A DNA stretch of 64,000 bases. Source: a bacterium (GTDB lineage: Bacteria; Eisenbacteria; RBG-16-71-46). Positions within the stretch are counted from its first letter, which is position 1, and every line of letters begins with the position of its first letter. The stretch lies in contig JAYWEM010000001.1 of the NCBI GenBank assembly GCA_043779265.1, positions 19,717 through 83,716 on the forward strand, given 5' to 3'. The notes beneath the pieces were generated by a model that saw only the letters and a program-made list of their open reading frames with translations, was not told where the DNA came from and searched no databases. Below are positions 8,425-35,652 of the stretch, piece by piece. The position numbers were made by a program, and so were the translations under genes.

Positions 8425-8452
8425 TTCTCGGTCGATTCGGCGCGCGGCTTGA
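8425..8452 (-). promoter_or_regulatory. Putative sigma-28 (FliA) promoter of the REC-PP2C/kinase operon
   Basis: Minus strand TCAAG-N15-ACCGAGAA, about 85 nt upstream of the start. Confidence 0.55.
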
Positions 8453-8480
8453 GGCTTCGAGAACCTTGCAGGGAGGGCAC

Positions 8481-10034
8481 TTGGCGGCTGAGACACGGGA
8501 TTTCACCGAAGCGGACCGGGCCCAACTGGCCGAGCGGGGCATCTCCGAGCCCGAAGCGGCCCGTCAACTCGGGCTGCTCGCGACTCCGCCGCCCCAGGCG
8601 GTACTCGTCCGTCCGTGCACGTTGGGCGATGGCGTACGACAGATCGAGCTCGCCGAGCGCGCTGAACTGATCGCCGCCCACGCCGAGGCCGCCTCCGCCG
8701 GGCGCATCCGTTCGTTCATCCCCGCATCGGGCGCGGCCTCGCGCATGTTCAAGGACCTGCTCGCGGCCCAGGCGCTTCCGACGTCGATCACGCCAGCCGA
8801 GGTCCGGGCTCTGGCGGCCGAGGGCCGTTCCGATGCCGCATCGCTCGCGCAACTCGCCGAGTTGCTGCCGCGCTTCGCATTCGCCGAGCGCCTCGCCGAG
8901 CAGTTGCGCTCACGTGGACTCGATCCCACGAAGGTGTCGAGCGATGGGCCGTGGCAGGCACTGCTCTCGGCGTTGCTCGATACCGACGGCCTCGACTACG
9001 CGAACGCCCCCAAGGGCCTCCTGCCGTTCCACCGCAACCATGGCGTCACGCGCACGGCGTTCGAGGAACATCTGAGAGAGGTGCCCGAAGTCGCGAGCGA
9101 CAAGGCCGGGCGGGCGCGGATCCACTTCACCGTCTCGAGCGAGCATCGCGAGCGCTTCGAACGGGCGTTCGCCCGCAGTCGAGGTGCGCTCGACTTCGGC
9201 GCCAGTGTCCAGGATGTGAGCTTCTCCGAGCAACTCCCGGCGACTGACACATTGGCGGGAGCAGTCGGGGGTGGAGCATTCCGCGACGATGCGGGGCGGC
9301 TCGTGTTCCGGCCTGCGGGACATGGCGCGCTGCTCGCCAACCTCCATGCGCTCTCGGCCGACCTCGTGTTCATCAAGAACATCGACAACGTCGCGGTGCA
9401 GGCGCTGAGAGGCGAGGGCGTGATCTGGGCCAAGCTCCTGCTGGGGTTGGTGGCGCGCTATCACGCCCGAGGCGGGGCGCTCGCTGCGAGGCTCCGCGCG
9501 GGTGATGCCTCGGCGGCGAGCGACGCGGCAGCGTTCCTCGCGGAGACCACGGGTGAAGCGCTCCCCTCGGACGCGGACGTGAACGCCTGGTTGCTGGCAC
9601 GGTTTGCGCGGCCGTGGCGCGTGGCGGGCATGGTGCCCAATACGGGCGAACCGGGCGGCGGACCCTTCTGGGTGCGCGGCGAGGGCGGCGCCGTGACGGC
9701 GCAGATCGTCGAGAGCGCCCAGGTCGACATGGGGAACCCGCAGCAAGGGGACAGATTCCGCCACGGCACGCACTTCAATCCCGTGTTCATCGCCTGCGCC
9801 CTTCGCGGTACCGACGGACAGAGCGTGACACTCGATCGCTTCGTCGATGACGCAGCCGTCATCGTGACGCGCAAATCGCATGGCGGTCGCGACCTGCTGG
9901 CGCTCGAGCGGCCGGGTCTGTGGAACGGCGCCATGGCGAGATGGAACACGGTGTTCGTCGAAGTGCCGCTCGCTGTGTTCACGCCGGTCAAGACGGTGTT
10001 CGACTTGCTGCGGCCGGAGCATCAGGGCGACTGA
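8481..10034 (+). CDS. DUF4301 family protein (nucleotide-diphospho-sugar transferase/UGPase-like fold)
   Basis: 'FIPASGAASRMFKDL', 'PKGLLPFH', 'FRPAGHGALL', 'FIKNIDN', 'GEPGGGPFWV', 'ALERPGLWNGAM', 'FTPVKTV'. TTG start after GGGAGGG. Confidence 0.85.
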   Translation: MAAETRDFTEADRAQLAERGISEPEAARQLGLLATPPPQAVLVRPCTLGDGVRQIELAERAELIAAHAEAASAGRIRSFIPASGAASRMFKDLLAAQALPTSITPAEVRALAAEGRSDAASLAQLAELLPRFAFAERLAEQLRSRGLDPTKVSSDGPWQALLSALLDTDGLDYANAPKGLLPFHRNHGVTRTAFEEHLREVPEVASDKAGRARIHFTVSSEHRERFERAFARSRGALDFGASVQDVSFSEQLPATDTLAGAVGGGAFRDDAGRLVFRPAGHGALLANLHALSADLVFIKNIDNVAVQALRGEGVIWAKLLLGLVARYHARGGALAARLRAGDASAASDAAAFLAETTGEALPSDADVNAWLLARFARPWRVAGMVPNTGEPGGGPFWVRGEGGAVTAQIVESAQVDMGNPQQGDRFRHGTHFNPVFIACALRGTDGQSVTLDRFVDDAAVIVTRKSHGGRDLLALERPGLWNGAMARWNTVFVEVPLAVFTPVKTVFDLLRPEHQGD

Positions 10035-10053
10035 GGGGGGCTTCAGCCCGCCA

Positions 10054-12078: not shown

Positions 12079-12111
12079 GTGCGGGAGGTGCCAACGGGCA
12101 AGTCCGGTGCT

Positions 12112-14622: not shown

Positions 14623-14687
14623 GGGCAGGTCCTCAGCGAAGGTGGATGCAGCCGCGTTGGGGGGGTGAGTCTGACAGAACGACGGAA

Positions 14688-14709
14688 CCCCGGTCCAGAA
14701 GGACCGGGG
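14688..14709 (-). terminator. Hairpin downstream of msrB
   Basis: ccccggtcc-ttct-ggaccgggg followed by ttccgtcgtt on the minus strand. Confidence 0.55.
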
Positions 14710-14745
14710 CCCGTGTGTGTCCGTTCCACCACTAGAGGGCCGCAC

Positions 14746-15453: not shown

Positions 15454-16095
15454 TCAGGCGGCGGAGGCCAGGTCGTTGCGACGCACGTAGAGATCCATCT
15501 CATCGCGCGTGAATTCCTCCCACAGGCGGCCACTGTCGTGCAGCTGCACGAACGCATTGACCACATCGGGGAAGAACTGGGTGCCGGCGTGGCGCTTGAG
15601 TTCGTCGCATGCGGCACGAGGCGAGAGTCCCCGGCGGTAGGGGCGGTCCTCGGTCATGGCGTCATAAGCGGCACACGCCATCACGATGCGCGCTCCGACC
15701 GGGATGCGATCGGCCGACAGCTTCGAAGGATACCCGGCGCCATCCGGTCGCTCGTGATGAGCGAGCACGATCTCGGCGGCGACCTCGAGACCCGGGATGT
15801 CCTTGAGCATCTCCCAGCCGATCGTCGGGTGGGTCTGCACCATCGCGCGCTCGGCCGGATCCAAGGCCCTCGGGCGAAGCAGAACGTCGTTGAGGATCGC
15901 GTTGCGACCGAGGTCGTGGAGCATGGCACCCAGCTCGATGTCGAGCAGCTCATCGCCGGGGACGCCCAACTCGCGCGCCACTCGAACGGAGTACCGCGCC
16001 ATGCGCAGCGAGCGACCGCGGGTGGTGGACTCGCTGGCGTCGATGACCGACGTCAGGGCGCGGACGGTGAGCGAGAGGGGTGTGCGCGGGTCCAT
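15454..16095 (-). CDS. Stand-alone HD-GYP domain protein (partly degenerate)
   Basis: 'LHDLGR', 'HHERPDGAGYP', 'RPYR'. GGAGG RBS before ATG 16095. Confidence 0.88.
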   Translation of the reverse strand: MDPRTPLSLTVRALTSVIDASESTTRGRSLRMARYSVRVARELGVPGDELLDIELGAMLHDLGRNAILNDVLLRPRALDPAERAMVQTHPTIGWEMLKDIPGLEVAAEIVLAHHERPDGAGYPSKLSADRIPVGARIVMACAAYDAMTEDRPYRRGLSPRAACDELKRHAGTQFFPDVVNAFVQLHDSGRLWEEFTRDEMDLYVRRNDLASAA

Positions 16096-16153: not shown

Positions 16154-16181
16154 GTATCGGCCACGTCGGCACCGGACTTCA
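16154..16181 (-). promoter_or_regulatory. Putative sigma-28 promoter of the HD-GYP gene
   Basis: TGAAG-N15-GCCGATAC on the minus strand. Confidence 0.65.
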
Positions 16182-16220
16182 GCCCCCTCGAAGGAGGGGC
16201 GCACCGGCGCATGGAATCAC

Positions 16221-16248
16221 TCAAGCCATTCCGCTCAAGTGCCGATTT
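16221..16248 (+). promoter_or_regulatory. Putative sigma-28 promoter of the GAF-HD gene
   Basis: TCAAG-N15-GCCGATTT. Would give an almost leaderless mRNA for ATG 16259. Confidence 0.55.
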
Positions 16249-16258
16249 CACCGGCATC

Positions 16259-17500
16259 ATGGCCCAGCCCCAGCCCCCAGATCCCCTGCGTCCGGATCGC
16301 CTCTCGCCTCAGGCCGAGGAGGCGGCGGATCACACCATCCTCGCGGCGCGTCCCATCTCCGAATGGGTCGACGTGCAGGGGAAGGTGGTGCGCTCGGATG
16401 CCCGCATCGCCGAGCTGATGCTGGGACTGGTGAGCGAGACCTCCGCGGCCCGCACGGACGAGCGTCGGCTGCTCGAGGTCATCGCCGACTTCGCCTTCCG
16501 TGCCTTTCCCAATGCGACGCATCATCTGCTGATCGCGCTCGAGGACGATGCCGTGCTGCGTCCCCTGCTCGCGCGTACGCGAGGTGGTGGGCCGGCGCCG
16601 GCCACGATCAGCCGGACGCTCGTCCAGCGCGTGCTGGCCGATCGCCAGGCGATGCTGGTGGCGCATGGGCAGGGAGCCTTCGATCCGACGCAGAGCATGG
16701 TGCTGTCCCAGATGGAGACCGCCATCGCGGCGCCGCTGCTTGGCAGCCGGCTGCCGCTGGGTGTCATCCAGATGGACATCCGCCGTCCGGGTAAAGGCCG
16801 TTTCGGTCGCGAGGACCTGGACCTCCTGTCGGTCTTCGCCAGCCAGGCCGCGCTGGCGCTGGAACATCTTCGGATGCATCAGCAGCAGCGGCGCGCGTTC
16901 CAGAGCACGATCGGTGCGCTGGTGCACTCCCTCACGCTCAAGGACCCGGATGCGGCGCTCCACAGCGAGCGCGTCCAGGCCGTCGCCGTCGCGATCGGAC
17001 AGCACCTCGGACTGACCGGGGACTCACTGCAGATCCTCTCGGTGGCCGCGCTGTTGCACGATCTCGGCAAGCAGGGTGTCCGCGATGAGGTGCTGTTCAA
17101 GGCGGGCCGGCTCACCGAGAACGAGCGCGCCGAGATGGATCATCACGCCGCTTACACGCAGACCATCCTCGACAAGATCGAGTACCCCGAGGAGCTTCGC
17201 GATGTGCCGCGGATCGCCGCCTACCATCACGAGAAGCTCGACGGCACCGGTCCCTTCGGGGTGGCGGGCGAGGACATCCCGATGGCGGCGCGCATCATCT
17301 CCGTCGCCGATGTGTTCGACGCGCTGATCTCGCCTCGCGTCTACAAGCAGCCGCTCGCTCCGGCCGCGGTGCTCGACGTGCTCGAGCGCGGACGCGACGT
17401 GGACTGGGACGGCAGCATCATCGATGCCCTGCGCAGCGTCGTGCTGAACGTGCTCGAGGAGACGTACGGCATGGACGAGGACGGGCAGCTGGCCGCCTGA
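16259..17500 (+). CDS. GAF + HD-GYP-like phosphodiesterase
   Basis: GAF region 'ISRTLVQRVL...AIAAPL...GVIQMD...DLDLL'; HD region 'HSERV', 'LHDLGK', 'HHEKLDGTGPF', 'VADVFDAL'. Alternative start 16211. Confidence 0.88.
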   Translation: MAQPQPPDPLRPDRLSPQAEEAADHTILAARPISEWVDVQGKVVRSDARIAELMLGLVSETSAARTDERRLLEVIADFAFRAFPNATHHLLIALEDDAVLRPLLARTRGGGPAPATISRTLVQRVLADRQAMLVAHGQGAFDPTQSMVLSQMETAIAAPLLGSRLPLGVIQMDIRRPGKGRFGREDLDLLSVFASQAALALEHLRMHQQQRRAFQSTIGALVHSLTLKDPDAALHSERVQAVAVAIGQHLGLTGDSLQILSVAALLHDLGKQGVRDEVLFKAGRLTENERAEMDHHAAYTQTILDKIEYPEELRDVPRIAAYHHEKLDGTGPFGVAGEDIPMAARIISVADVFDALISPRVYKQPLAPAAVLDVLERGRDVDWDGSIIDALRSVVLNVLEETYGMDEDGQLAA

Positions 17501-17553: not shown

Positions 17554-18627
17554 TCAGGCGGCCTGTTCGGTCCCGTTGATGTGACGCTCGAACCGGGTCC
17601 GATCGACGGAGTGCTCGTAGGCTTCCTCGCCGGTGATCAACTCACGGCGGACCATGTCCTCGAGCTGCGCGTCGAGCGACTGCATGCCGACGCGGCCACC
17701 CGCCTGGATCGCGGACGGCAGCTTGTGCGTGTTGCCCTGGCGGATCATGGCGCTGACCGCGGTCGTGTTGACCAGCACCTCGGCCGCCACCATCCGGCCC
17801 GTCTGGTCGGTCTTGCGCACGAGCTGCTGCGCCACGACGAGTCGCAGCGAATCGGACAGCATGGTGCGGATCTGATCCTGCCGACGGGGCGGGAACACGT
17901 TGATGATGCGGTCCACCGATCGCACGGCGCCGTTGGTGTGCAGCGTGCCGAGCACGAAAATGCCGGTCTCGGCGGCGGTGAGCGCCAGGCTCATCGTCTC
18001 GAGATCGCGCATCTCACCCACGAGGATGACATCGGGGTCTTCGCGAACGGAGGCGCGCAGCGCCTCGGCGAAACTCGGGGCGTCGCGACCGATCTCGCGC
18101 TGCGTGATCACCGACTGCTGGAACTCGTGCACGTACTCGATCGGGTCCTCGATCGTGAGGATGTGGCCACGACGCGTGCGGTTGAGATGGTCGATCATGC
18201 CGGCGAGTGTGGTCGACTTGCCGGATCCGGTCGGGCCGGTCACCAGCACGAGGCCCTTGCCGACGGCCAGGACCTGCTGCACGACCGCGGGCAACCCGAG
18301 CGTCTCGAGCGGCGGGACCTGGCTCGAGATCCGGCGCATCGCCGCAGCGATGCCGCCGGTATGCAGGTAGACATTGACGCGGAAGCGTCCGGCGGTCTCG
18401 CACTCGTAGGCGAAGTCGACCGCGCATCGCTCGTCCAACTGTCGGCGATGATCGTCGGTCATGAACTCGTTGAGGAAATCGCGGACGTCCTGCTCGGAGA
18501 GCTCGCGGAACCGCACGGGCTGGAGATTGCCGTGGATGCGGATGCGCGGCGCCTGTCCCGAGACCAAGTGGAGGTCGGAGCCGCCTTGATTCACCGCGAG
18601 CTCGAGGAATGCGTCGATCCGGTTCAT
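17554..18627 (-). CDS. pilT: Type IV pilus retraction ATPase, PilT/PilU family (copy 2)
   Basis: 'GSDLHL', Walker A GPTGSGKSTT, 'TIEDPIE', 'EDPDVILVGEMRD', 'GTLHT'. ATGA overlap with the upstream pilT. Confidence 0.92.
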   Translation of the reverse strand: MNRIDAFLELAVNQGGSDLHLVSGQAPRIRIHGNLQPVRFRELSEQDVRDFLNEFMTDDHRRQLDERCAVDFAYECETAGRFRVNVYLHTGGIAAAMRRISSQVPPLETLGLPAVVQQVLAVGKGLVLVTGPTGSGKSTTLAGMIDHLNRTRRGHILTIEDPIEYVHEFQQSVITQREIGRDAPSFAEALRASVREDPDVILVGEMRDLETMSLALTAAETGIFVLGTLHTNGAVRSVDRIINVFPPRRQDQIRTMLSDSLRLVVAQQLVRKTDQTGRMVAAEVLVNTTAVSAMIRQGNTHKLPSAIQAGGRVGMQSLDAQLEDMVRRELITGEEAYEHSVDRTRFERHINGTEQAA

Positions 18628-19727
18628 GCCGCGGACCTCGAATCGCCGGTCATCATCGCGAGGAGTTCGGGTCGCGTGACATAGGCGGCGAAGCCCCACT
18701 TCTCCTCGGCCTTGAGGAACGCCTCATCCGGATCGATCTCGCCGGCCCGCACGAGTGCGAGCAGCGACTGGTCCATGAGCTGCATGCCGAGGCGCTTGCC
18801 CATCGTGATCGAGCCCGGGATCTGGAACGTCTTGCCGTCGCGGATCAACTGCTGCACCGCCGGCGTCACGACCAGGATCTCGACCGCGGCGCGGCGGCCA
18901 CGACCGTCGGCGGCCCGGATGAGCTCCTGACTGACGACCGCCTTCAAGTTGTCCGCGAGCGAATGGCGAACCTGCGCCTGATTGTCGCTTGGATGCGCAT
19001 CGACGATGCGATCGATGGTCTGGGCCGCGCCCCGGGTGTGGAGTGTGCCGAGTACCAAGTGGCCCGTCTCAGCGGCTTCGAGCGCCAGTGTCACGGTGTC
19101 GGCGTCGCGAAGCTCGCCGACCAGGATGACGTCGGGGTCCTGACGAAGTGCGGAGCGCAGACCTTCGCGGAAGCTCGGGACATGCGTGCCGAGCTCGCGC
19201 TGGACGACTTGCGCCTTGGCGCCCTTGTGCACGAACTCGACCGGGTCCTCGAGCGTCACGATGGTGAGCATGGAGGTGCGGTTGATCTCGCCGATCATCG
19301 CCGCGAGCGTCGTCGACTTGCCCGTTCCGGTGGAGCCGGTGACGAGCACGAGTCCCGATCGCAGCCGCGTGAATTGCTGGATCACTTTGGGCAAACTGAG
19401 ATCCGCCAGGTCGGGAGTCCGATCGGGGACCGCGCGGCAGATCGCGCTCAGCCCGCGGCTATGGCGAACGACGTTGACGCGGAATCGACCGACTCCGGGA
19501 GCGGTGTACGCCAGGTCCACCGAGCCGCGCTCCTTCAGCTGGAGTTCGAGGTTCTCGTCGAGGAGCTCGCGCACGAAGCCCTCGGTCTCCTCCATCGAGA
19601 GTGCGCGGTACTTGACCGGCGTCAGCTCGCCATCGAGACGCACGAGCGGCGGCAGTCCGACCACGAAATGGATATCGGAACCGCCTTGCTGCTTGCCGAT
19701 CTCGAGGAACGCGTCGATGCGGGCCAT
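18624..19727 (-). CDS. pilT: Type IV pilus retraction ATPase, PilT/PilU family (copy 1)
   Basis: 'GSDIHF', GSTGTGKSTT, 'TLEDPVE', 'QDPDVILVGELRD', 'AETGHLVLGTLHT'. Confidence 0.92.
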   Translation of the reverse strand: MARIDAFLEIGKQQGGSDIHFVVGLPPLVRLDGELTPVKYRALSMEETEGFVRELLDENLELQLKERGSVDLAYTAPGVGRFRVNVVRHSRGLSAICRAVPDRTPDLADLSLPKVIQQFTRLRSGLVLVTGSTGTGKSTTLAAMIGEINRTSMLTIVTLEDPVEFVHKGAKAQVVQRELGTHVPSFREGLRSALRQDPDVILVGELRDADTVTLALEAAETGHLVLGTLHTRGAAQTIDRIVDAHPSDNQAQVRHSLADNLKAVVSQELIRAADGRGRRAAVEILVVTPAVQQLIRDGKTFQIPGSITMGKRLGMQLMDQSLLALVRAGEIDPDEAFLKAEEKWGFAAYVTRPELLAMMTGDSRSAA

Positions 19728-19740: not shown

Positions 19741-22074
19741 CTAGCCCGAGTGCCGAAGCATCTCGAGCATCGCAGCGGCCGTCTGGGGACGGTCGTCCGC
19801 GAAGCGCGACATGGAACGCATGACGATCTCGTTGACCCCGGCCGGGATGCCAGCGGCGACCTGGTCGAGCGCCGGGACATCGGCCTCGAGGTGCTGGAAC
19901 AGCACGTTCACGGCGTTCGCGCCGGCGAATGGCTGCTTCCCCGACAACATCTCGTAGAGCACGATTCCGAGCGAGTAGAGATCCGAACGCGCATCGATCT
20001 CGTGGCCGGTGATCTGCTCGGGTGAGATGTACTCGGGCGTGCCCACCAGGATGCCGCTCTGGGTCAGGCGCGAGCGCGAACTCTGCGAGACGGCTGCGAG
20101 GCCGAAGTCGACGATCTTGGCCGTGTCGAGCTTGTCGATGAGCAGGTTGGCGGGCTTGATGTCGCGATGGATGATCCCCAGCGCGTGCGCCGCGGTCAGT
20201 CCCTCGAGCACCTGGTCGGCGATGTGCAGCACGCGCGCCACCGGCATGGGCCCGTCCTGCCGCAGTGCGGTGCCCAGATCGCGTCCATCGAAGTGCTCCA
20301 TCGAGATCGCGTGCGCGCCGCGCAGATCGAGCAGGTCGTGGATGCGGATGACGTTGGAGTGCGTGATGCGCCGCGTCAGTTTCAGTTCCTGCACGAAGCG
20401 CTTGATCATCGCCTCGTCCATCGACAGCTGCGGGCTGAGGATCTTGAGCACCAGTTCCTCGCGCACCACGGTGTCCTCGACGAGGTACACGGTTCCGAAT
20501 CCACCGCCGCCGATCCGCTGCAGCACTCGGAAGCGCTCGATGAGCACGGTACCCGGCTCGAGGCGCTGGAAGTGGAGCGTGCGATGCGAATCCTGATGGA
20601 CGCCTTCGACACCGGCGCTCGGTGTTCCGCGCTTGGAGCCCGAGTCGGATCGACCGGTGTCCGGCCCGTAACTGCCGCGGACTTCCAGCGGCATCGGGTT
20701 GCTGCCACTGCCCCCGGCACCGGCCTCCCGCAGCGTGTCGAGCAGCGTGGTGCGCTCGCTGTCCGGCAGTTCCATCTTCGACATGCTCGACAGCGCGTGC
20801 AGCGCCTCGCGTCGGATCTCGCTGCTATCGGATCGCGCCAGCTGGCAGATGGGCTCGACCGCGCGGACGTCCGCGAGCTTCGCCAGGGCACGGATGCAGA
20901 GCGGAATGGCGCGCGTGTCACGGTGCAGCAGGTGGAGCAGTGGCTCGACGGCACGGTTGTCGCCCGTCTTGGCCAGAGCGTCGATGGCGCGCTCGCGCAC
21001 CCACCAGTCGGGATCTTGGAGCGCGTCGATCAGCGCCGGGACCGCGCGCTTGTCCGGCACGGTGTTGAGGATCTCGACGGCGTAGCGCCGAACGAAATCA
21101 TCGCCGTCGCGCACCAGCCCGATCACGGCCTCCACGACGCGCGTGCCGCCCAGGGTGCCCAGGGCATCGGCGGCGCGAACGCGCACCCACCAGTCCTGGT
21201 CGCGCAGGGCCGAGACGAGGTCCTTGATGGCATCGACGGTGACGACCTGATTGAGCACCTCGACCGCGCTGCGGCGCACGTATTCCGAGTCATCCTTCAG
21301 GGCATCGAGCAGGTGGGGCACGGCGTTGACGTCGCCGACCGCGATCAACGTCTCGATGCTGGCGTTCTGCACCTTCATGTCGGAGTCACGCAGCATGCCA
21401 CACAGGGCCGGGACGGCTGACGTGGCCTTGAGCTGCCCGAGCGCCTTGACCGCCTCGAGCCGCACCGCCGCCGTGGGGTCGGTGAGTCGTCCCGTCAGCG
21501 CCTGGATCGACTCGGGCGTGTCGAATCGGCCGAGCAGCCGCGAGAGATGCAGCCGCAGCCACCAGTCGTCGTTCGAGAGATAGGCTGCGGCATCGCGAAC
21601 GATGGTGGCGTCGGCGCTGCGCTCGATCAAGCGGAAGACGCTGCCACGGGCATCCTTCGTCAGCTCGGGCAGGAGGCGGAGCAGCGTGGACGTCTGCACG
21701 CGCGGCAGCTGCTCCTGAAGAACCGCTTCGAGACGCGCCTTGCTGACGCGCGAATCGGCGAACAGCGGCAGCAGCTCCGTCGGCTCGTAGTGCTCACCCG
21801 CTGCGAGGGCGCGGGTCGCGGCCTCGGCGACCGGAGCGCTCTGGGAGCGTAGCGCCTCGACGTAGTGCGACAGCGTCTCCTTCGTCAGCAGCCGGCCGAG
21901 GACGAACTGCAGCGAGTCCAAGCTGGCACCACCCTGAGCCGCGTCGAACAGCGACTTGATCGCGGATCCGCCCAGCGTCAACAGGTGCTCCTCCGCCGCT
22001 CGCGCCTCCGACTCATCCGTCGAGGCGAGGCGGCGAACGAGGTGTCCGGCCTGGAAGCGCTTGAGGAGGTCCAT
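19741..22074 (-). CDS. HEAT-repeat protein with C-terminal Hanks-type Ser/Thr kinase
   Basis: Multiple 'L.D.DWWVR..A..AL' HEAT repeats; kinase motifs GGGGFGTVY, VLK, HRDIKPANLL, DFGLA, GTPEYISPEQ, SDLYSLG. Confidence 0.93.
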   Translation of the reverse strand: MDLLKRFQAGHLVRRLASTDESEARAAEEHLLTLGGSAIKSLFDAAQGGASLDSLQFVLGRLLTKETLSHYVEALRSQSAPVAEAATRALAAGEHYEPTELLPLFADSRVSKARLEAVLQEQLPRVQTSTLLRLLPELTKDARGSVFRLIERSADATIVRDAAAYLSNDDWWLRLHLSRLLGRFDTPESIQALTGRLTDPTAAVRLEAVKALGQLKATSAVPALCGMLRDSDMKVQNASIETLIAVGDVNAVPHLLDALKDDSEYVRRSAVEVLNQVVTVDAIKDLVSALRDQDWWVRVRAADALGTLGGTRVVEAVIGLVRDGDDFVRRYAVEILNTVPDKRAVPALIDALQDPDWWVRERAIDALAKTGDNRAVEPLLHLLHRDTRAIPLCIRALAKLADVRAVEPICQLARSDSSEIRREALHALSSMSKMELPDSERTTLLDTLREAGAGGSGSNPMPLEVRGSYGPDTGRSDSGSKRGTPSAGVEGVHQDSHRTLHFQRLEPGTVLIERFRVLQRIGGGGFGTVYLVEDTVVREELVLKILSPQLSMDEAMIKRFVQELKLTRRITHSNVIRIHDLLDLRGAHAISMEHFDGRDLGTALRQDGPMPVARVLHIADQVLEGLTAAHALGIIHRDIKPANLLIDKLDTAKIVDFGLAAVSQSSRSRLTQSGILVGTPEYISPEQITGHEIDARSDLYSLGIVLYEMLSGKQPFAGANAVNVLFQHLEADVPALDQVAAGIPAGVNEIVMRSMSRFADDRPQTAAAMLEMLRHSG

Positions 22075-22104: not shown

Positions 22105-22722
22105 TCAGCGGGGAAGCAGCAGGTACATGGCTCCAGCGCCCAGTAAGGCGCCGAGCAGGAAGGTCACGACCAACGTGGAAGTCGAGCTCGACGCGGACGG
22201 CGCCGCCGATGTCGAGACCGAACCCGAACCCGAACCCATGGCCGATGTTGCGGTGGGAGCCTGAGCCGTCGAGGCGATCGGCAGCGGCGGGGGTGGGGAG
22301 CTCTCCTTCTCGCGCTGCGTCTCGAGCAGATGCCCGAGCTCGGTGCGCGACAGGATGACCGTGTGCTGCTCGGCGTCCGACGGGCGGCGCGCATCCGCGG
22401 CCAGTGTCCGGCGATCGATCTCATAGCCGACCCACAGCGTGTACTTGCCGAAACGGACCACGTCGTTGTTGCGGACCACGGCCGTGTTGACCGCCTGGTC
22501 GTTCACGAACGTGCCGTTGGCGCTGCCCAGATCGACGACCTGGTAGTCGCCATTGGACGTGCGCTCCATGCGGAAGTGGTCACGCGAGATGCCGGGATTG
22601 TCGACGAACACGTCGGCCGCGGGATCGCGTCCCACGCTGACGACCTGCTTGTCGAACGTGAAGTTGCGCACGGGGCGCCCCATCAGGGACAGGCGCAACT
22701 TGAGGAGCTGGGGTTCGGACAT
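22105..22722 (-). CDS. FHA-domain protein with C-terminal transmembrane anchor
   Basis: 'VSVGRD...ISRDH...DLGSANGTFVN'; Pro/Ser linker; C-terminal TM LVVTFLLGALLGAGAMYLLL; GGAGG RBS. Confidence 0.9.
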   Translation of the reverse strand: MSEPQLLKLRLSLMGRPVRNFTFDKQVVSVGRDPAADVFVDNPGISRDHFRMERTSNGDYQVVDLGSANGTFVNDQAVNTAVVRNNDVVRFGKYTLWVGYEIDRRTLAADARRPSDAEQHTVILSRTELGHLLETQREKESSPPPPLPIASTAQAPTATSAMGSGSGSVSTSAAPSASSSTSTLVVTFLLGALLGAGAMYLLLPR

Positions 22723-22796: not shown

Positions 22797-22824
22797 TCAT
22801 CGGCGCATCGAGAGTTCGACTTGA
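22797..22824 (-). promoter_or_regulatory. Putative sigma-28 promoter of the FHA-kinase-pilT-pilT operon
   Basis: TCAAG-N15-GCCGATGA, about 75 nt upstream of ATG 22722. Confidence 0.7.
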
Positions 22825-27372: not shown

Positions 27373-27392
27373 CGCCAGGTGTACCGGTGCCG

Positions 27393-28461: not shown

Positions 28462-28896
28462 ATGAACATGCTGACCTGGACACTCCTTCTCTGTGGAGCG
28501 CTCGGCTCCGACCAGGGAGCGCAGCCGATGCCGCTGCAGCCAGCGCCCGCCGGCGCGCGTTGCGTCGTGGGCGCTCGCCCGCTCGCCTGGAGCCCATACA
28601 CGAGCCGAACGGAGTCGGGTATGACGATCGACCTCGATCCCGAGGCACGCGTCGCCTCGCCCGAGCGCGCATCCAGCCTGTACTCGCAGCAGGAGTTCGA
28701 ATCGCTCGGCGACCTTCGCTCCGATGTGATGGCCGACGGCTCGCTTCGTCTGGTGCTGGGCGACCGACTCCAGAGCTACAGCGTGCTGCGCGTGGATGGT
28801 GCCGGGAAGTTGCGTCTCGACTGCGCTCACAGCGAACACGAGGCCGATCGGATGAGCCGCACCCCGGCACCGGCACGTGCGAGGGAGGACCGATGA
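28462..28896 (+). CDS. Small secreted hypothetical protein coupled to the PA-domain peptidase
   Basis: GGAGG RBS, signal-like N-terminus, 'MADGSLRLVLGDRLQSYSVLRVDGAGKLRLDC'; ATGA overlap with the next gene. Confidence 0.7.
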   Translation: MNMLTWTLLLCGALGSDQGAQPMPLQPAPAGARCVVGARPLAWSPYTSRTESGMTIDLDPEARVASPERASSLYSQQEFESLGDLRSDVMADGSLRLVLGDRLQSYSVLRVDGAGKLRLDCAHSEHEADRMSRTPAPARAREDR

Positions 28897-30560: not shown

Positions 30561-30576
30561 CCCGAGGCGCGGAGAC

Positions 30577-30617
30577 GACCGAGGCCCCGCAGCGCTCAGC
30601 GCCGCGGGGCCTCGGTC
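30577..30617. terminator. Bidirectional hairpin between the peptidase and cheY
   Basis: gaccgaggccccgc...gcggggcctcggtc, a 14-bp stem. Confidence 0.75.
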
Positions 30618-30632
30618 ATGATGGAATCGGCG

Positions 30633-31046
30633 TCAACCGTCGGTGCCGGTCGCAGCCTCGGGGGGCGCATCGGCCGCCGGGCGCGCGGCGTTCATCAGTT
30701 CCTGGATCTTGCGGGTCAGGATGTCGGGCGTGAACGGCTTGACCACGAAGCCGCTGACGCCGGCGCGCGTCGCCTCGGACATGTCGTCCTTGATGTGGCG
30801 GGCGGTGACGAGCAGGACGGGGATGTGGACCAGGGCCGGATCCTGGCGGATCTTGCGGACCAGATCGACGCCGGACATGCCCGGCATGTTCCAGTCGGTC
30901 ATGATCAACGCGAGATCCGCAGTGCATTGGGTGATCGCGGCTTCGGCGTCGGCAGCCTCGAGCACGGTCTCGAACCCCATCTGCTTGAGACTGTTGACGA
31001 GGATGCGCCTCGTCAGCGACGAGTCATCCACGACCAGGCACTTCAT
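30633..31046 (-). CDS. cheY: CheY-like single-domain response regulator
   Basis: 'LVVDDS', 'TDWNMPGMSG', 'IPVLLVT', 'FVVKPFT'; directly downstream of flgM. Confidence 0.8.
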   Translation of the reverse strand: MKCLVVDDSSLTRRILVNSLKQMGFETVLEAADAEAAITQCTADLALIMTDWNMPGMSGVDLVRKIRQDPALVHIPVLLVTARHIKDDMSEATRAGVSGFVVKPFTPDILTRKIQELMNAARPAADAPPEAATGTDG

Positions 31047-31074
31047 CGCGCCATCCCCCTCGATCGAACCGGAC

Positions 31075-31383
31075 TCAGATGTCGCTCGCGATGCGGAGGA
31101 GCACTTCGTCGATGACTTCGGGCTTGTCGTAGTCGCCTCGGGCGATCCGCTCGGAGATGCCGTGGAGACGTCCCTCGTCCAACTCGCCGTGCGGAATGCT
31201 CTCGGGTCCCGCGTGCGTCTGCAGCAGACGAGCGGGGGTCGAGATCTGCACCTCGTCGTTGCGAGTCGGGGCTCCGCTGGCGCCTGCGGTGCGCTCCGGC
31301 TTGGAGCCGGTGCGCGTGGGAACGTCCTCGCGCGTGCGGTCGATGCGCGAGGAAGGTCCGGGCGTAGTGGGTCGGATGGTCAT
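31075..31383 (-). CDS. flgM: Anti-sigma-28 factor FlgM
   Basis: 102 aa; 'RNDEVQISTPAR', 'RLHGISERIARGDYD'; GAGGGG RBS; preceded by a sigma-28 motif. Confidence 0.8.
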   Translation of the reverse strand: MTIRPTTPGPSSRIDRTREDVPTRTGSKPERTAGASGAPTRNDEVQISTPARLLQTHAGPESIPHGELDEGRLHGISERIARGDYDKPEVIDEVLLRIASDI

Positions 31384-31475
31384 GATCCCCTCGTTGCGTG
31401 GTCCCGGCTGGAGGGCGGAGCGCCACTCGGTTCGCCGGATGCCGTGGGGGACGAATCCCCCTCGGCTCGCTTCCA

Positions 31476-31503
31476 GTATCGGAAGGTCCTTGCGCCGACT
31501 TGA
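31476..31503 (-). promoter_or_regulatory. Putative sigma-28 promoter of flgM-cheY
   Basis: TCAAG-N15-TCCGATAC. Confidence 0.75.
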
Positions 31504-31537
31504 GTGTGTCCCTTGCAGAATGCGCTCCGGCGGGGGC

Positions 31538-31942
31538 TCACGCGGCCGCTTCCGAGCTCGCCGGCTCGGAGCTGCGCGTGGACAGCCCGTCGGCGAGCTG
31601 GCGATTGATGCCGACCAGGGCCTGGATCCCCTCGCGATTCGGCTCGGACAACAACGCGAACGTCCGCCGGTCGACGAATCGCGAGAGCTGCAGCAGATTG
31701 ACGCGCAAGGAGCGGGGCAGCGAGCACTCGGGCGATACCCACTCGCCCTGGAAGAACGTCCACAGGCGCTGATTGTGCCGCAGCGCCTGGGATAACTGCT
31801 CCTCGCAGCCGGGCTCACCCCAGATGCGCTGGCAGTCCTCCAACTGGCGCGCCGCCCGGCTCAGGGCAGCCGCTTCGAGTTCCCTCCCGGACGAAGCCGT
31901 GCGGGACCCGGAGTCATACGCGCGGCGTGGGCCGTTGAACAT
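31538..31942 (-). CDS. flaF: Flagellar biosynthesis regulator FlaF
   Basis: 'SGRELEAAAL', 'ALRHNQRLWTFFQ', 'LPRSLRVNLLQLSRFV', 'LVGINRQLADGL'; follows flbT. Confidence 0.88.
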   Translation of the reverse strand: MFNGPRRAYDSGSRTASSGRELEAAALSRAARQLEDCQRIWGEPGCEEQLSQALRHNQRLWTFFQGEWVSPECSLPRSLRVNLLQLSRFVDRRTFALLSEPNREGIQALVGINRQLADGLSTRSSEPASSEAAA

Positions 31943-32321
31943 GCTCGAGAAGCTCCTTCTCGTGGGCCATCAGGTCGCGGCCCAGTTTGAGCGCGTGGTA
32001 GTAGCGTCCCTCTTCGACGCACTTGTCGATCGGTTCGAGGTATCGGCGAGAGCTGGGGCTGGCATCCAGCACATCTTCGACCAACAGCCGGTAGCTGCGC
32101 TCGTGGGACTCGCGCCGCTGCGGGTCGACGTACATCAACTGGATGGAGAGCACGATGTGCTCGCACGGGCTCTGCACCGCCGCAGGACTGAGGATGTCAC
32201 TCCCGCGCAGCACCGGGACCTCGGTCTCCACGAAGAGCTCGGCCCGGTTGCGACCGTTGGTGAGGACCGCACCGCCGATGATCGCGCGTTCCTGCGGTTT
32301 GAGTGTGAGACGGAGCGCCAT
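31914..32321 (-). CDS. flbT: Flagellar biosynthesis repressor FlbT
   Basis: 'MALRLTLKPQERAIIGGAVLTNG', 'PVLRGSDIL', 'SIQLMY', 'YYHALKLGRDLMAHEKELL'. Confidence 0.9.
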   Translation of the reverse strand: MALRLTLKPQERAIIGGAVLTNGRNRAELFVETEVPVLRGSDILSPAAVQSPCEHIVLSIQLMYVDPQRRESHERSYRLLVEDVLDASPSSRRYLEPIDKCVEEGRYYHALKLGRDLMAHEKELLEHVQRPTPRV

Positions 32322-32502
32322 GGGGTTCCTGTCGTCAGACGTCGGTGTCTTTGTCCCGGATGCGTCATGCATCCTTCGGCGGGCACCGGTGGCGGGGGAG
32401 GCTTCTGGTCCCCCGTTCACCGGCCCGCGTTTTCTTACGTTTCAAGGCCAGCCTGCGCCGGAGTCGGTTCCGCCGATCCGGACGCCTGCGGGCCCGCCTC
32501 GG

Positions 32503-33318
32503 CTAGAAAAGCCGGAGAACGGACTGCTGCGCCTGCGATGAGAGCTGCAGAGCGACGACGCCAAGCTGCTGACGCGTCTGCAGGGCGAGCATGTTCGCAC
32601 CCTCTTCGTTCGAGTCCGCCGCCGTGAGCATGTCCGCGCCCTCGGTCAGCGTGTTGATCATCTCGGTGGTGAACTCCTGACGCGTGGTCACGACGCCGTT
32701 GCTGGACGACAGCGTCTTGGCCTGTGTACGGAGCTCGGTCAGTGCGGCGTCGAGGTCCGAGACGGCACCGTCGACATCCGCGTCCGCAGCCCAGGAGTTG
32801 GCAGCTGCGTCGATCGCCAGATCGCCGGCGACCGTGGCATCGAAGCCCGAGATCGTCAGCGCCGAGGATCCGTCCTCGTTGAACTCCACCGTCAGGTCGT
32901 CGCCGTCCAGGAAGTTCGTGCCCTTGTAGCCGGAGTCGGTCGCAAGGTTGTCGATCTGGGTGCGCAGCGCGTCGAACTGGGTCGCGAGCGTCGCACGGTC
33001 GGCAGTCGACGCCGAACGGGCGGAAGCTGCGAGACCCTTCATCTGCTCGACGATCTTGGTGATCGCCTCGATACCCTTGAGCGACGCCTTCACCGTCTGG
33101 ATCGCCTCACCCATCGTGTCCTTGCGGGCCGCGAGGTCCTGGGCACGGTTGGTGTGGTTCTGGGCGGCGAAGTAGGCCGCCGCGTCATCGACGGCGGAGT
33201 TGACGCGCTTGCCGGTGGCCAGACGCGTCGTCGTGCGGCCCTGCAGGGCTGCCGTCATCTGCAGCTGGATCAGGTTGCCACGCATTCCGCCCGACAGGTT
33301 GATGTCATTGATCGCCAT
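32503..33318 (-). CDS. fliC: Flagellin (271 aa, paralog 2)
   Basis: 'RLATGKRVNSAVDD', 'DSGYKGTNFL', 'ADSNEEGANMLALQTRQQL...VLRLF'. Confidence 0.95.
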   Translation of the reverse strand: MAINDINLSGGMRGNLIQLQMTAALQGRTTTRLATGKRVNSAVDDAAAYFAAQNHTNRAQDLAARKDTMGEAIQTVKASLKGIEAITKIVEQMKGLAASARSASTADRATLATQFDALRTQIDNLATDSGYKGTNFLDGDDLTVEFNEDGSSALTISGFDATVAGDLAIDAAANSWAADADVDGAVSDLDAALTELRTQAKTLSSSNGVVTTRQEFTTEMINTLTEGADMLTAADSNEEGANMLALQTRQQLGVVALQLSSQAQQSVLRLF

Positions 33319-33401
33319 GGTGAAACGGTCCCCTTCTCGGGATCTGGAGGTTGTCATCCCGGCTTCTGCCTGGCGGTCGACGCTTCGGCCGACAGACAGG
33401 A

Positions 33402-33428
33402 GTCTCGGCTGACCATTCCCCGGCTTGA
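33402..33428 (-). promoter_or_regulatory. Putative sigma-28 promoter of flagellin 2
   Basis: TCAAG-N14-GCCGAGAC. Confidence 0.75.
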
Positions 33429-33575
33429 GACCACGCCAAGCGAGATTCGCTGGCCTGGGTGCGATGCCCCACGCTTCGGCGGCCGAGTCGGGAGCGGATC
33501 GGGACGACAACAGACCAGCGGGCGGGTGCATGCCGCACCCGGCCCGCTGGCCGTGACCTCCGTGTCGCTCCGATG

Positions 33576-33605
33576 GCGGCGGGCGGATCCTCCGCCCTCG
33601 TCGCC
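33576..33605 (-). terminator. Hairpin after flagellin 1
   Basis: Imperfect stem ggcggcgggcgga-tcc-tccgccctcgtcgcc, about 20 nt after the stop. Confidence 0.5.
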
Positions 33606-33624
33606 TCCGGTTCCCGGTGTTCGA

Positions 33625-34440
33625 CTAGAAGAGTCGGAGCACCGACTGCTGCGCCTGCGAGGAGAGCTGCAGGGCGACGACGCCGAGCTGCTGACGCGTC
33701 TGCAGGGCGAGCATGTTGGCGCCCTCCTCGTTCGAATCCGCCGCCGTGAGCATGTCGGCGCCCTCGGTCAACGTGTTGATCATCTCGGTCGTGAACTCCT
33801 GCCGTGTCGTCACGACGCCATTGCTCGAGGAGAGCGTCTTGGCCTGCGTGCGCAGCTCGGTCAAAGCGGCATCCATCTCACCGATGGCGACGTCGACATC
33901 GGTGTCCGCCACCCATGCGTTGGCGGCTCCGGCGATGGCGAGATCGCCGCCGACCGTGGCATCGAAGCCCGAGATCGTCAGCGCCGAGGTTCCATCCTCG
34001 TTGAACTCCACCGTCAGAGTGTCCGCGCTCAGGAAGTTCGTGCCCTTGTAACCGGAATCGGCCGCCAGGTTGTCGATCTGCTCGCGCAGCGCATCGAACT
34101 GGGTCGCCAGCGTGGCGCGGTCGTTCGCGGTGGCCGAGCGTGCGGAGGCCGCGAGGCCCTTCATCTGCTCGATCAGGCGCGAGATGCCCTCGATGCCCTT
34201 GAGCGAGGCCTTCACGGTCTGGATCGCCTCGCCCATCGAGTCCTTGCGGGCGGCCAGATCACTGGCGCGGTTCTGGTGGTTCTGGGCGGCGAAGTACGCC
34301 GACGCATCGTCCACCGCGGAGTTCACGCGCTTGCCCGTCGCGAGGCGGGTCGTGGTGCGGCCCTGCAGTGCGGCCACCATCTGCAGCTGGATCAGGTTGC
34401 CACGCATGCCGCCGGACAGGGTGATGTCGTTGATCGCCAT
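33625..34440 (-). CDS. fliC: Flagellin (271 aa, paralog 1)
   Basis: Same motifs and same 816-nt length as 32503-33318; tandem paralog. Confidence 0.95.
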   Translation of the reverse strand: MAINDITLSGGMRGNLIQLQMVAALQGRTTTRLATGKRVNSAVDDASAYFAAQNHQNRASDLAARKDSMGEAIQTVKASLKGIEGISRLIEQMKGLAASARSATANDRATLATQFDALREQIDNLAADSGYKGTNFLSADTLTVEFNEDGTSALTISGFDATVGGDLAIAGAANAWVADTDVDVAIGEMDAALTELRTQAKTLSSSNGVVTTRQEFTTEMINTLTEGADMLTAADSNEEGANMLALQTRQQLGVVALQLSSQAQQSVLRLF

Positions 34441-34517
34441 GACTCGAACTCCCTTCTGGAGTGCTGTTCTCGCCCTCGGCATTCTGCCGGGGCGCGTGTT
34501 TCACACGCTGGGCCCTA

Positions 34518-34544
34518 CTCTCGGCAGAGTGGGGCCGGGCTGAA
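34518..34544 (-). promoter_or_regulatory. Putative sigma-28 promoter of flagellin 1
   Basis: TTCAG-N14-GCCGAGAG. Confidence 0.6.
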
Positions 34545-34671
34545 GGGGGGGATGTGCTGGATCGCGCGATGGCTCGTGCGGATCGCGGACGGCACCCGCA
34601 AATGGCGGCAAGTGCGTCGTGCGGCTCGGCGCGATGCATGGCGCTGAGCGGGACGAGCAGGGATAGGCGAA

Positions 34672-34702
34672 GCGCCGCGACCCCTTTCGGGAGCCGCGGC
34701 GC
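34672..34702 (-). terminator. Hairpin after flgL
   Basis: gcgccgcg...cgcggcgc stem with a GAAA loop on the minus strand. Confidence 0.55.
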
Positions 34703-34725
34703 CTGATGCCTGCCTCAGCCGTGGA

Positions 34726-35592
34726 TCAGCGCAGGTATTCGGTCAGTGTCGCCTGCATGACACGACCGATGGTGGCATAGGCTCGCTCGAGCGCCGCCTG
34801 CTCCTGCTGCAGGCGCACGATGGCCTCCGCCGGATCGACGCTCACCAAGGCGTCCCGCCGCTCGAGCAGGAAGGACTGGATGCGGGCCAACCGAAGTCCA
34901 CCATCCTGGATCTCCTTCAGGCGCGAGCCGGTCTCGGCCTGTGCCCGCATCACGGTCTGGGTCGAACTCTCGAGGTCGACCGAGACAGTTCGGATGTCCG
35001 CCTGAGTGCCGCTCTGGAGCGCGGTGATCAGGTCGTCCATCGCCGCCATCGCACCGCCGAACAGGGCGCCGCCCTCGTGGTTGACCGTCACGCCGACGCC
35101 ATCGCCCACGGTGACGCTGCGCGAGGCGCTGTCCCCGACGTACGTTCCGTCCGCCCGGAAGGGCGGCGTGGTCGTCTGCGCCCCTCCGAAGAGGTACTCG
35201 TTCCCGACCCGGGTGTTGCCGAGCGAGACCAGTTGGGCCTTGAGTTGTTGGACGGCCGAGAGCGCCGCCAATCGCTGCGGGTCGGTGGGGTCGTTGCCGG
35301 TCGTCGTCGCCGCCAGATTCTTGGCTTCCCGGAGGGCGGCGAGGACACTGGAGAGCGAGATGTCCTCGGCCGATAACCGCGTCGTCGCGAAAGTTCCGTT
35401 GCGGCGGTATTGTTCGATGTCCCGGGCCTGTGCCTCCAGGCGCATCATCTGGGAAGCGTCGATCGGATCGTCGGAGATCGAACGGACTCGGCGTCCTGTT
35501 GCAGCTTCGGAAGCAGCACGTTCCAGCGCTTGAAGCCGGCCGCGAAGGCCGGAGGTCAGACTGCGCTGGATCATCTGATTGGTGATCCGCAT
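34726..35592 (-). CDS. flgL: Hook-associated protein 3, FlgL (flagellin-like N and C domains)
   Basis: 'MRITNQM', 'ATGRRVRSISDDP', 'GNTRVGNEYLFGG', 'YVGD', 'TLTEYLR'. Confidence 0.9.
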   Translation of the reverse strand: MRITNQMIQRSLTSGLRGRLQALERAASEAATGRRVRSISDDPIDASQMMRLEAQARDIEQYRRNGTFATTRLSAEDISLSSVLAALREAKNLAATTTGNDPTDPQRLAALSAVQQLKAQLVSLGNTRVGNEYLFGGAQTTTPPFRADGTYVGDSASRSVTVGDGVGVTVNHEGGALFGGAMAAMDDLITALQSGTQADIRTVSVDLESSTQTVMRAQAETGSRLKEIQDGGLRLARIQSFLLERRDALVSVDPAEAIVRLQQEQAALERAYATIGRVMQATLTEYLR

Positions 35593-35624
35593 GGAACCCC
35601 CTCGTCGGTGCGGGTCTGAGAGCA

Positions 35625-35652
35625 GTATCGGAAACGCATGGAAGCGGCTTGA
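35625..35652 (-). promoter_or_regulatory. Putative sigma-28 promoter of flgL
   Basis: TCAAG-N15-TCCGATAC; boxes identical to the flgM promoter. Confidence 0.75.

Follow-up and report, generated by a model that had tools for sequence, protein, structure and literature searches.

The stretch of DNA studied here (the window) comprises 64,000 nucleotides (nt) of contig JAYWEM010000001.1 from a bacterial genome of the Eisenbacteria (assembly GCA_043779265.1, referred to as G000), and carries a flagellar gene cluster with its own sigma-28 factor, here called FliA1, alongside the genes of a partner switch (a STAS protein, an RsbW-like kinase and a REC-PP2C phosphatase), two HD-domain proteins and an operon encoding an FHA protein, a HEAT-repeat kinase and two PilT-family ATPases. 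An original prediction listed eight sigma-28-type sites before these genes and proposed that the window's FliA reads them all as one late motility programme, switched on by export of its anti-sigma factor FlgM. We report an analysis of this proposal in G000 and 60 relatives (61 genomes in total). The genome encodes a second sigma-28 factor, FliA2, and we consider it probable that the two factors share a regulon of about 50 operons, in which FliA2 is a relic that acts independently of a flagellum and FliA1 serves the flagellins and probably the partner switch, with overlap between the two.

The gene labels of the original prediction (REC-PP2C, two HD-domain proteins, the FHA/HEAT-kinase/two-PilT operon, FlgL, two flagellins and FliA) are upheld, and all eight sites are present as written, on the strands given for them. 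The list overlooked a ninth site, ahead of the STAS gene, which spans the edge of the window (G000:C1:19710-19737) such that its -35 box TCAAG lies just outside and its spacer and -10 box inside. The sites have the features of sigma-28 promoters: a TAAA/TCAA-like -35 box, a GCCGATAA-like -10 box, fixed spacing, an intergenic position and an orientation facing a gene start. Only 10 nt separate the end of the GAF-HD site from the ATG at 16259, and the site falls within a longer open reading frame call; this distance recurs in several genomes, which suggests a nearly leaderless message, and the site stands back to back with the small-HD site, 39 nt away (16154-16259). A further candidate before flgF (59117-59145, N16, TCCGAGCC) was rejected, being absent from seven relatives.

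Table 1. Sigma-28-type sites and associated genes (window positions unless a contig or locus is named)
Feature	Position	Strand	Remarks
Site of STAS gene (ninth site)	1..21	+	short-spacer CCGAGAC class; 105 nt before gene
STAS anti-anti-sigma factor, partner switch	127..486	+	PF01740; TIGR00377 above cut-off
RsbW-like Ser kinase/anti-sigma factor	6732..7169	-	NF003144 E 3e-13, below cut-off
REC-PP2C (SpoIIE) phosphatase	7166..8341	-	PF00072 + PF07228
Site of REC-PP2C/RsbW operon	8425..8452	-	N15, ACCGAGAA
Small HD-GYP-like protein	15454..16095	-	PF13487
Site of small HD protein	16154..16181	-	long-spacer CCGATA class
Site of GAF-HD	16221..16248	+	weak; divergent partner of small-HD site
GAF + HD-GYP-like protein	16259..17500	+	PF13487, GAF
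PilT/PilU-family ATPase	17554-18627	-	TIGR01420 above cut-off
PilT/PilU-family ATPase	18624-19727	-	TIGR01420 above cut-off
HEAT-repeat Ser/Thr kinase	19741..22074	-	member of FHA/kinase/PilT operon
FHA protein	22105..22722	-	PF00498; first gene of FHA/kinase/PilT operon
Site of FHA operon	22797..22824	-	long-spacer class
CheY-like receiver	30633..31046	-	downstream of flgM
FlgM1, anti-sigma-28	31075..31383	-	full-length, with D-x-V-x-I-S motif
Site of flgM-cheY	31476..31503	-	N15, TCCGATAC; long-spacer class though flagellar
flaF	31538-31942	-	PF07309; above NF009435 cut-off
flbT	31914-32321	-	PF07378
Flagellin 2	32503..33318	-	
Site of flagellin 2	33402..33428	-	short-spacer CCGAGAC class
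Flagellin 1	33625..34440	-	
Site of flagellin 1	34518..34544	-	short spacer
FlgL hook-filament junction protein	34726..35592	-	TIGR02550 above cut-off
Site of flgL	35625..35652	-	N15, TCCGATAC; long-spacer class though flagellar
FliA1, sigma-28 of the flagellar cluster	57948..58730	+	TIGR02479; after flhA-flhF-flhG
FliA2	G000:C18:8543-9415 (L018)		outside window
csrA	L018:3339-3566		FliA2 neighbour
flgM2	L018:3610-3816		FliA2 neighbour
Kinase	L018:3874-5097		FliA2 neighbour
NtrC-type activator	L018:5036-6460		FliA2 neighbour
flhG2	L018:7635-8531		FliA2 neighbour

Within the window the pattern TCAAG-N13-16-CCGA occurs 10 times, against 2.06 +/- 1.61 times in shuffled sequence, and none of 100 shuffles reaches 10. 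The matrix test suggested with the original prediction, in which only the four flagellar sites are used for training, was applied to the 150 nt upstream of 60 called window genes with 1000 shuffles each, the starts of flgL and GAF-HD being placed by hand at 35592 and 16259. Nine of the 60 genes have p<0.02, namely the four training genes and those for FHA (12.7 bits, p 0.004), small HD (17.4 bits, p 0.001), GAF-HD (12.7 bits, p 0.003), REC-PP2C (13.7 bits, p 0.006) and STAS (19.8 bits, p 0.001), which include all four non-flagellar sites first listed; none of the other 51 window genes passes, the lowest p being 0.055.

It might be argued that the non-flagellar sites are chance matches, or the sites of an unrelated regulator. 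Across 2763 upstream windows of the genome there are 57 real and 17 shuffled matches at 12.7 bits, which makes about three in ten attributable to chance; many weaker matches fall within genes (41 of the 100 at >=16 bits); and some targets have a housekeeping look (selA, 6PGD, carbonic anhydrase), a few of which may be false matches. Because the background at 12.7 bits is not small, the FHA and GAF-HD sites rest on their conservation, which rescues the former clearly and the latter moderately. Against chance stands, in the first place, the intergenic DNA of the genome (282 kb), which holds 39 matches of at least 16 bits where 30 shuffles averaged 1.9 and never exceeded 6. With a refined matrix, trained on 42 sites from which the window's non-flagellar sites were left out, 31 of the 35 sites of at least 20 bits are intergenic and face a gene start, in a genome of which 8.7% is non-coding. 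Moreover, orthologous promoters keep the site while their spacers have diverged, the matches peak specifically at spacers of N14 and N15, and the boxes agree with published sigma-28 promoters (PMC4183435). Chance is thus scarcely credible as a general explanation, and for the window's own sites it is largely refuted.

At 16 bits or more, 54 of the 59 intergenic sites found with the refined matrix face a start, and these 54 sites lie ahead of 53 genes or operons of G000. This orientation count was used in place of an antisense control, which divergent promoters confound; a reversed-pattern control leaves codon bias uncorrected, and the argument is carried by intergenic placement and by the class counts per genome given below. 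Five members of the set are flagellar (flgL, the two flagellins, flgM-cheY and motAB). The signalling members comprise csrA, four operons with HD or HD-GYP-type proteins, three HDOD proteins, hybrid kinases, receivers and an Hpt; the pilus-type members are PilB-REC, an MshEN-ATPase with two further ATPases, and the FHA operon; polysaccharide export and glycosyltransferase genes and lptC-lptB-rpoN are also found. The last of these is preceded by a long-spacer site (G000:C155:15697-15725, locus L041; also G012, L286) ahead of lptC-lptB-rpoN-hpf, through which sigma-28 activity could be returned onto the supply of sigma-54. Gene pairs of HEAT-repeat and HD-type proteins carry the motif on two contigs of G000 (C37 and C28; L022, L039), as do HEAT homologues in G004, G012, G016 and G030.

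We compared the promoters of orthologous loci in genomes with and without a flagellum, a genome being counted as without where FliF was not found; two of 11 REC-PP2C loci (partial matches) and six of 29 kinase loci (C-terminal pieces) were omitted from the promoter counts. The promoter of csrA-flgM2, which lies in the same block as FliA2, is present at 29 of 30 loci and at 21 of the 22 from genomes without FliF, and the sole miss has the site with one extra spacer base. Conservation upstream of orthologues, a further check suggested with the original prediction, holds for the FHA operon (19 of 21 scored loci; 12 of 14 without FliF) and for STAS (5 of 5 loci, all N14-GCCGAGAC), and is weaker for small HD (6 of 11; 2 of 5) and for GAF-HD (9 of 12 at p<=0.05; 4 of 6, two of these borderline). 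Promoters of MshEN-ATPase homologues have the site in 11 of 14 cases (6 of 9 without FliF), at protein identities of 37-45% such that some may be paralogues. At E<=1e-60 the HEAT-repeat kinase is matched in 22 of the 61 genomes, including 15 without FliF, and the long-spacer motif occurs in all 61. In five non-flagellated genomes that are 99-100% complete (G004, G012, G016, G024 and G030), 61 of 73 strict long-spacer matches are intergenic and face a start, with csrA, TPR-DUF4388, HEAT and HD-GYP proteins, PAS kinases and receivers as recurring targets; no flagellar gene is named among the 83 targets there, 52 of which were named through Pfam and the rest by their best G000 match.

These data bear directly on the proposal that the window's FliA alone reads every site as one late class gated by FlgM export. 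In its favour, the four non-flagellar sites score well on a matrix of flagellar sites, the modules adjoin the flagellar cluster in G000, G002, G003 and G023, and the STAS orthologue (other STAS paralogues were not counted) is found in 5 of the 61 genomes, all of them flagellated (E<=1e-15). However, the genome contains a second sigma-28 factor, and the FHA and csrA promoters, with the long-spacer motif, persist in relatives that gave no match to FliA1 or FliF, including the five near-complete genomes just named; the modules are therefore not one late flagellar class, and we judge the proposal distinctly improbable. The pattern of a late flagellar class was found only for the flagellins, flgL, flgM1, motAB and the STAS orthologue. 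What stands of the original prediction is that its sites are of sigma-28 type by sequence, placement and conservation and that they reach signalling, c-di-GMP-type (cyclic di-GMP) and pilus genes; what lacks support is the single sigma factor and the single motility programme, the FHA/kinase/PilT promoter being among those kept without a flagellum. Its partner-switch part fits best, through the distribution and uniformly short-spacer promoters of STAS, yet even there a REC-PP2C homologue in a non-flagellated relative departs from the pattern, as discussed below.

Searching the 60 relatives with the window's FliA gave two groups of matches. The FliA1 group (54-81% identity) is present in 10 of the 60; the FliA2 group, at about 38% identity, is matched in 58, two of these matches being partial, and was not found in G035 and G049. 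Thirty-four of the FliA2-type matches were checked in the tree. FliF occurs in 15 relatives, 10 with the window's type and five with a distant type at 32-36% identity, such that across all 61 genomes there are 16 with FliF and 11 with FliA1. FliA2 has sigma regions 2, 3 and 4 without region 1.2, lies in an flhG-fliA context and has WhiG/FliA proteins as its nearest solved relatives, the best matches in the PDB being the Streptomyces WhiG-type entries 6pfv and 6pfj. Its block runs in the order promoter, csrA, a 68-residue FlgM-like gene (flgM2), kinase, NtrC-type activator, receiver, two small genes, flhG, fliA2, GGDEF and kinase. The two small genes (L018:7169-7638) encode a lone sigma region 4-like protein (PF08281) and a 77-residue protein, both conserved.

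In five relatives (G037, G039, G041, G055 and G060) the FliA2 orthologue sits beside flhA/flhB within a complete flagellar cluster. There flgL is followed first by a 148-residue gene, FliW-like by eye, and then by csrA, and the order flagellin-flgM-kinase is seen; the FliA2 block is therefore this native cluster minus its structural genes, the relic of a lost flagellum. The native clusters also have a gene of 78-81 residues between flhG and fliA. Phylogenies, which were quick trees with support from the SH-like approximate likelihood ratio test (SH-aLRT), recover a FliA1 clade at 98-99% and unite FliA2 with the native-cluster factors at 93-97%. Approximately unbiased (AU) tests reject a grouping of FliA1 with family-level FliA2 (p 0.004) and with native-cluster FliA (p 6e-79). 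The window's flagellin is only 24-27% identical to the native flagellins and 72% identical to one named Gemmatimonadales flagellin among the 120 best matches listed. The simplest reading is that the window's flagellar cluster was probably acquired horizontally. A fragment of the same type occurs in G031 (88% complete), in which L171:9992-14350 (G031:C10) holds fliA1, flhG1, an activator, flaF, a short FlgM-like frame and two sigma-28 sites, with no match to FliF or flagellin in the genome; this looks like the same collapse a second time, now of the second flagellar cluster.

The FlgM2 family aligns with the C-terminus of FlgM (hhalign probability 97.7%, against an alignment holding a Pfam-positive native FlgM). 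The D-x-V-x-I-S motif, found in 11 of 11 FlgM proteins compared, is seen in none of 22 FlgM2 sequences, which have a basic, low-complexity N-terminus in its place. No FlgM entry was matched when the PDB was searched with the FlgM2 profile. A predicted complex of FliA2 and FlgM2 scores 0.76, against 0.00 for the best of three controls and a mark that 116 of 157 solved and 2 of 215 mismatched pairs reach; the runs agree in at least 71% of contacts, the partner has a predicted local distance difference test (pLDDT) value of at least 59, and the contacts fall on sigma region 4. As solved sigma-28/FlgM complexes exist, the model shows likeness and not binding. RsiG carries the motif E-x3-S-x2-R-x3-Q-x3-D, which is absent from the 22 FlgM2 sequences; no genome-wide search for a separate RsiG was made. 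Ahead of the receiver-flhG2-fliA2 operon a sigma-54 motif is present at 14 of 20 loci, where shuffling gives 0.125, and the adjacent kinase and NtrC-type activator therefore probably switch on fliA2. A sigma-54 pattern is found in one of seven flgB and none of eight flgF upstream regions, leaving sigma-54 control of the window's early genes unsupported.

The promoters themselves divide into two classes. Within G000 the sixth base of the -10 box is associated with the length of the spacer, G going with N14 and T with N15 (Fisher p 5e-4 to 8e-4), and 12 of 13 N14-CCGAGA[CA] matches are intergenic. Classes were counted in 37 genomes of the family, 11 with a FliA1 system (G002 being included by its FliF and flagellin) and 26 without. 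The strict short class has a median of 6 with the FliA1 system and 0 without (Mann-Whitney p 8e-5, or 0.001 without the genus of G000), p-values that overstate the case because the genomes share ancestry and G000 had been inspected before the classes were drawn up on it; the strict long class has medians of 14 and 14.5 (range 9-21 in the 26). None of the 26 genomes has more than two short-class sites, and contrasts within a genus run the same way (15 in G003 against 1 in G030; 4 in G031 against 0 in G004). The targets of short-spacer sites in G003 and G011 include CheW-CZB, an MCP-like sensor, HDOD homologues and STAS, and the CCGAGAC box is seen at the REC-PP2C/RsbW promoter in 3 of 4 orthologous loci. 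Statistically, short-spacer CCGAGAC sites track FliA1, and long-spacer CCGATA sites occur regardless of it.

We infer from these findings that FliA2 is the ancestral flagellar sigma factor of the lineage. Its flagellum would have been lost and the regulators left as a block (csrA, flgM, kinase and NtrC-type activator, flhG, fliA, GGDEF and kinase), retained, we propose, because the sigma factor already served other genes. Probably transcribed from a sigma-54 promoter, fliA2 would give rise to a factor that transcribes csrA and the shortened anti-sigma factor FlgM2, which would provide negative feedback, as well as a programme of type IV pilus ATPases, the FHA/kinase/PilT operon, HD-GYP-type proteins, hybrid kinases and polysaccharide genes, mostly through long-spacer TCAAG-N15-GCCGATA promoters. 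Most of the pilus and signalling genes are probably under the control of FliA2, also in relatives without a flagellum. Some lineages, G000 included, would then have come to hold another flagellar cluster, unrelated to the first and equipped with FliA1 and a full-length FlgM1 of its own, and FliA1 may prefer short-spacer TCAAG-N14-GCCGAGAC promoters, those of the flagellins, STAS, probably REC-PP2C/RsbW, HDOD proteins and chemotaxis genes. Gating by FlgM export is plausible for the FliA1 branch only. With no export gate, FlgM2 must be removed otherwise, and degradation, as suggested for Legionella oakridgensis (PMC5655016), is our best guess. The branches would overlap, as the long-spacer sites of flgL and flgM1 in G000 suggest.

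Several observations weigh against this reading. The split between classes is statistical: the FliA1 genomes G022, G028 and G007 hold 0, 1 and 2 strict short-class sites, G050, of another family, holds five without FliA1, flgL, flgM1 and motA of G000 carry CCGATAC boxes, and PilB-REC and the MshEN-ATPase of G000, both pilus genes, carry short-spacer sites. Nor do phosphatases belong to the FliA1 branch alone, since a long-spacer site lies 204 nt upstream of a distant REC-PP2C homologue in G012, which is non-flagellated. The small HD and GAF-HD sites are only partly kept without flagella, and a 16-nt spacer was permitted only after a first pass in which 13 of the 21 FHA loci had passed. Only 2 of the 22 FlgM2 sequences match the Pfam FlgM family PF04316, with a best E of 0.0023, and the case for horizontal acquisition of the second cluster consists of its patchy distribution, the tree and the one Gemmatimonadales flagellin match. 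Finally, the promoters recognised by WhiG1 and WhiG2, two sigma-28 clades of Actinomycetota that have pilus and c-di-GMP targets, proved similar in tests (PMC13595943), and FliA1 and FliA2 may therefore be largely interchangeable.

This last point leads to the possibility that both factors read all the promoters about equally, the difference of spacer and base reflecting promoter age or lineage drift and the whole set in G000 being driven jointly, with FliA1 adding a flagellum-gated boost to a FliA2 baseline. Both clades show hardly any variation at the promoter-contacting D, R and R positions of regions 2.4/3.0 or in the SESR-S-Q motif of region 4, the MshEN-ATPase promoter belongs to either class depending on the genome, and flgL and flgM1 have long-spacer sites; WhiG1 and WhiG2, moreover, both reproduce the same phenotype in Streptomyces (PMC13595943). 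Equal reading sits poorly with the scarcity of short-spacer sites in the 26 genomes without FliA1 and with their persistence in G031, which has kept FliA1 without FliF or flagellin. There is also a fixed difference in region 2.3/2.4, where 35 of 35 FliA2 proteins have W and 14 of 14 FliA1 proteins have P, which falls by alignment at the position of sigma-70 W433, equivalent to I79 of Pseudomonas aeruginosa sigma-28 (PMC12784957). We regard equal reading as unlikely and retain a division of labour between FliA2 and FliA1. The idea that the Trp of FliA2 eases promoter melting is unsupported, as I79W gave no gain in transcription in P. aeruginosa (PMC12784957).

As regards the remaining genes, FliA1 matches TIGR02479 with 230.9 bits (cut-off 189.6), and the closest named relatives of this protein come from Ca. 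Eisenbacteria. FlgM1 itself has no Pfam match, and three of its orthologues match with E of 1e-4 to 1e-3. The two HD proteins are candidate HD-GYP phosphodiesterases by their match to PF13487. The small one keeps HD and GYP, with two usual metal-ligand positions that look altered by eye, and the GYP motif of the GAF-HD protein reads GPF. STAS adjoins RsbW/REC-PP2C in G002, G003 and G023, three of the four relatives with the STAS orthologue; in G000 only, two divergent secreted-type genes (574-6728; FlgD-Ig, type IX secretion-like tails) part them. The genes flbT and flaF, known from Alphaproteobacteria, lie beside flgM and FliA-type flagellin promoters, an order that recurs in other clusters of this type, and fliO and fliP are fused in a single frame of 417 residues (50533-51786). 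No methyl-accepting chemotaxis protein (MCP, PF00015) or CheW (PF01584) was matched in G000 (92% complete), nor CheW in G020 (100% complete); both are flagellated and have a CheY-like gene after flgM, and CheW is present in G003, G022 and G037. Genes were called with a home-made dicodon model, which missed fliK and most genes of the lower-GC loci L187, L175, L194 and L195.

FliA regulons that reach c-di-GMP and partner-switch genes are already known. FliA promoters precede the c-di-GMP genes yhjH and ycgR in Escherichia coli (PMC4183435), bifA belongs to an extended FliA regulon in Pseudomonas (PMC5300878), and a weak FliA-dependent promoter lies ahead of hsbA-hsbR-hptB in P. putida (bioRxiv 2021.08.29.457346, 2024.11.25.625174); these organisms have a single sigma-28 factor, whereas G000 has two. 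REC-PP2C, RsbW, a STAS protein with D-S-T-G and Hpt genes with the motif loosely match the HptB-HsbR-HsbA system, in which HsbR is kinase and phosphatase in one protein, unlike the separate REC-PP2C and RsbW of G000. HsbA binds FlgM in P. aeruginosa but is reported to leave FliA unaffected in P. putida (bioRxiv 2021.08.29.457346, 2024.11.25.625174), so that a STAS-FlgM link in G000 is only a lead. A switch in which STAS frees FlgM2 in non-flagellated relatives was considered and dropped, given the restriction of the STAS orthologue to flagellated genomes.

The closest parallel in the sigma factors is with WhiG1 and WhiG2 (PMC13595943), which likewise form two clades, one linked to a flagellar cluster and one not, can co-occur, have similar promoters and have c-di-GMP enzymes and type IV pilus genes among their predicted targets. 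There the flagellum-linked WhiG1 keeps the ancestral role and the split is interpreted as an old duplication, whereas in Eisenbacteria it is the non-flagellar FliA2 that is the native FliA orthologue, and FliA1, unlike WhiG1, is part of a separate and probably acquired cluster; WhiG2 is held by RsiG with c-di-GMP (PMC13595943), and the partner of FliA2 would be a shortened FlgM. Regulators also outlive the flagellum in the non-flagellated L. oakridgensis and L. longbeachae, which keep FliA/FlgM, FleN and FleS/FleR, and Legionella flgM is sigma-28-dependent; the FlgM it encodes remains inhibitory, and degradation seems to take the place of export in clearing it (PMC5655016). The available text of that paper describes no second flagellar system with its own sigma-28, and the block in Eisenbacteria differs in retaining csrA and a GGDEF/kinase pair as well and in occurring throughout a class. 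In Rhodobacter sphaeroides an acquired flagellar system stands beside a native one, as was probably once so in the G000 lineage, but both Fla1 and Fla2 are functional (PMC7277832), whereas G000 keeps only the regulators of its native system. Eisenbacteria CsrA is rarely predicted to repress the Bacillus flagellin message (PMC13443453), and the available main text of PMC13277936 makes no mention of 'Eisen' or 'Gemmatimonad'. Titles and abstract openings of the literature on Eisenbacteria flagella, in a search that left most subscription papers outside, gave no account of this regulon. The novelty lies in a relic sigma-28 factor coexisting with a probably acquired one, in the flagellum-independent regulon and in the promoter split.

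A bolder version of our reading, which we offer tentatively and with some doubt, is that the Eisenbacteria replaced their flagellum and kept its switch. The orphan sigma-28 factor and an N-terminally shortened, export-independent FlgM would have become a class-wide regulator of pili, c-di-GMP and the cell surface; the second system would have brought its own sigma-28 factor, with the promoters now divided by a one-base difference in spacer and one base of the -10 box; and the collapse would be repeating itself in G031. The sites described here provide a first candidate regulon, together with a promoter matrix that can be put to use, for a phylum of which no member has been cultured. They suggest that type IV pili, c-di-GMP-type enzymes and polysaccharide genes belong to a single conserved programme in that phylum. 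They also offer a small natural test of the insulation between co-resident sigma-28 factors, a question left by WhiG1 and WhiG2 (PMC13595943), and of how FlgM is removed without a flagellum. More generally, they warn against taking a fliA gene or its motif in a metagenome bin as evidence that the organism swims.

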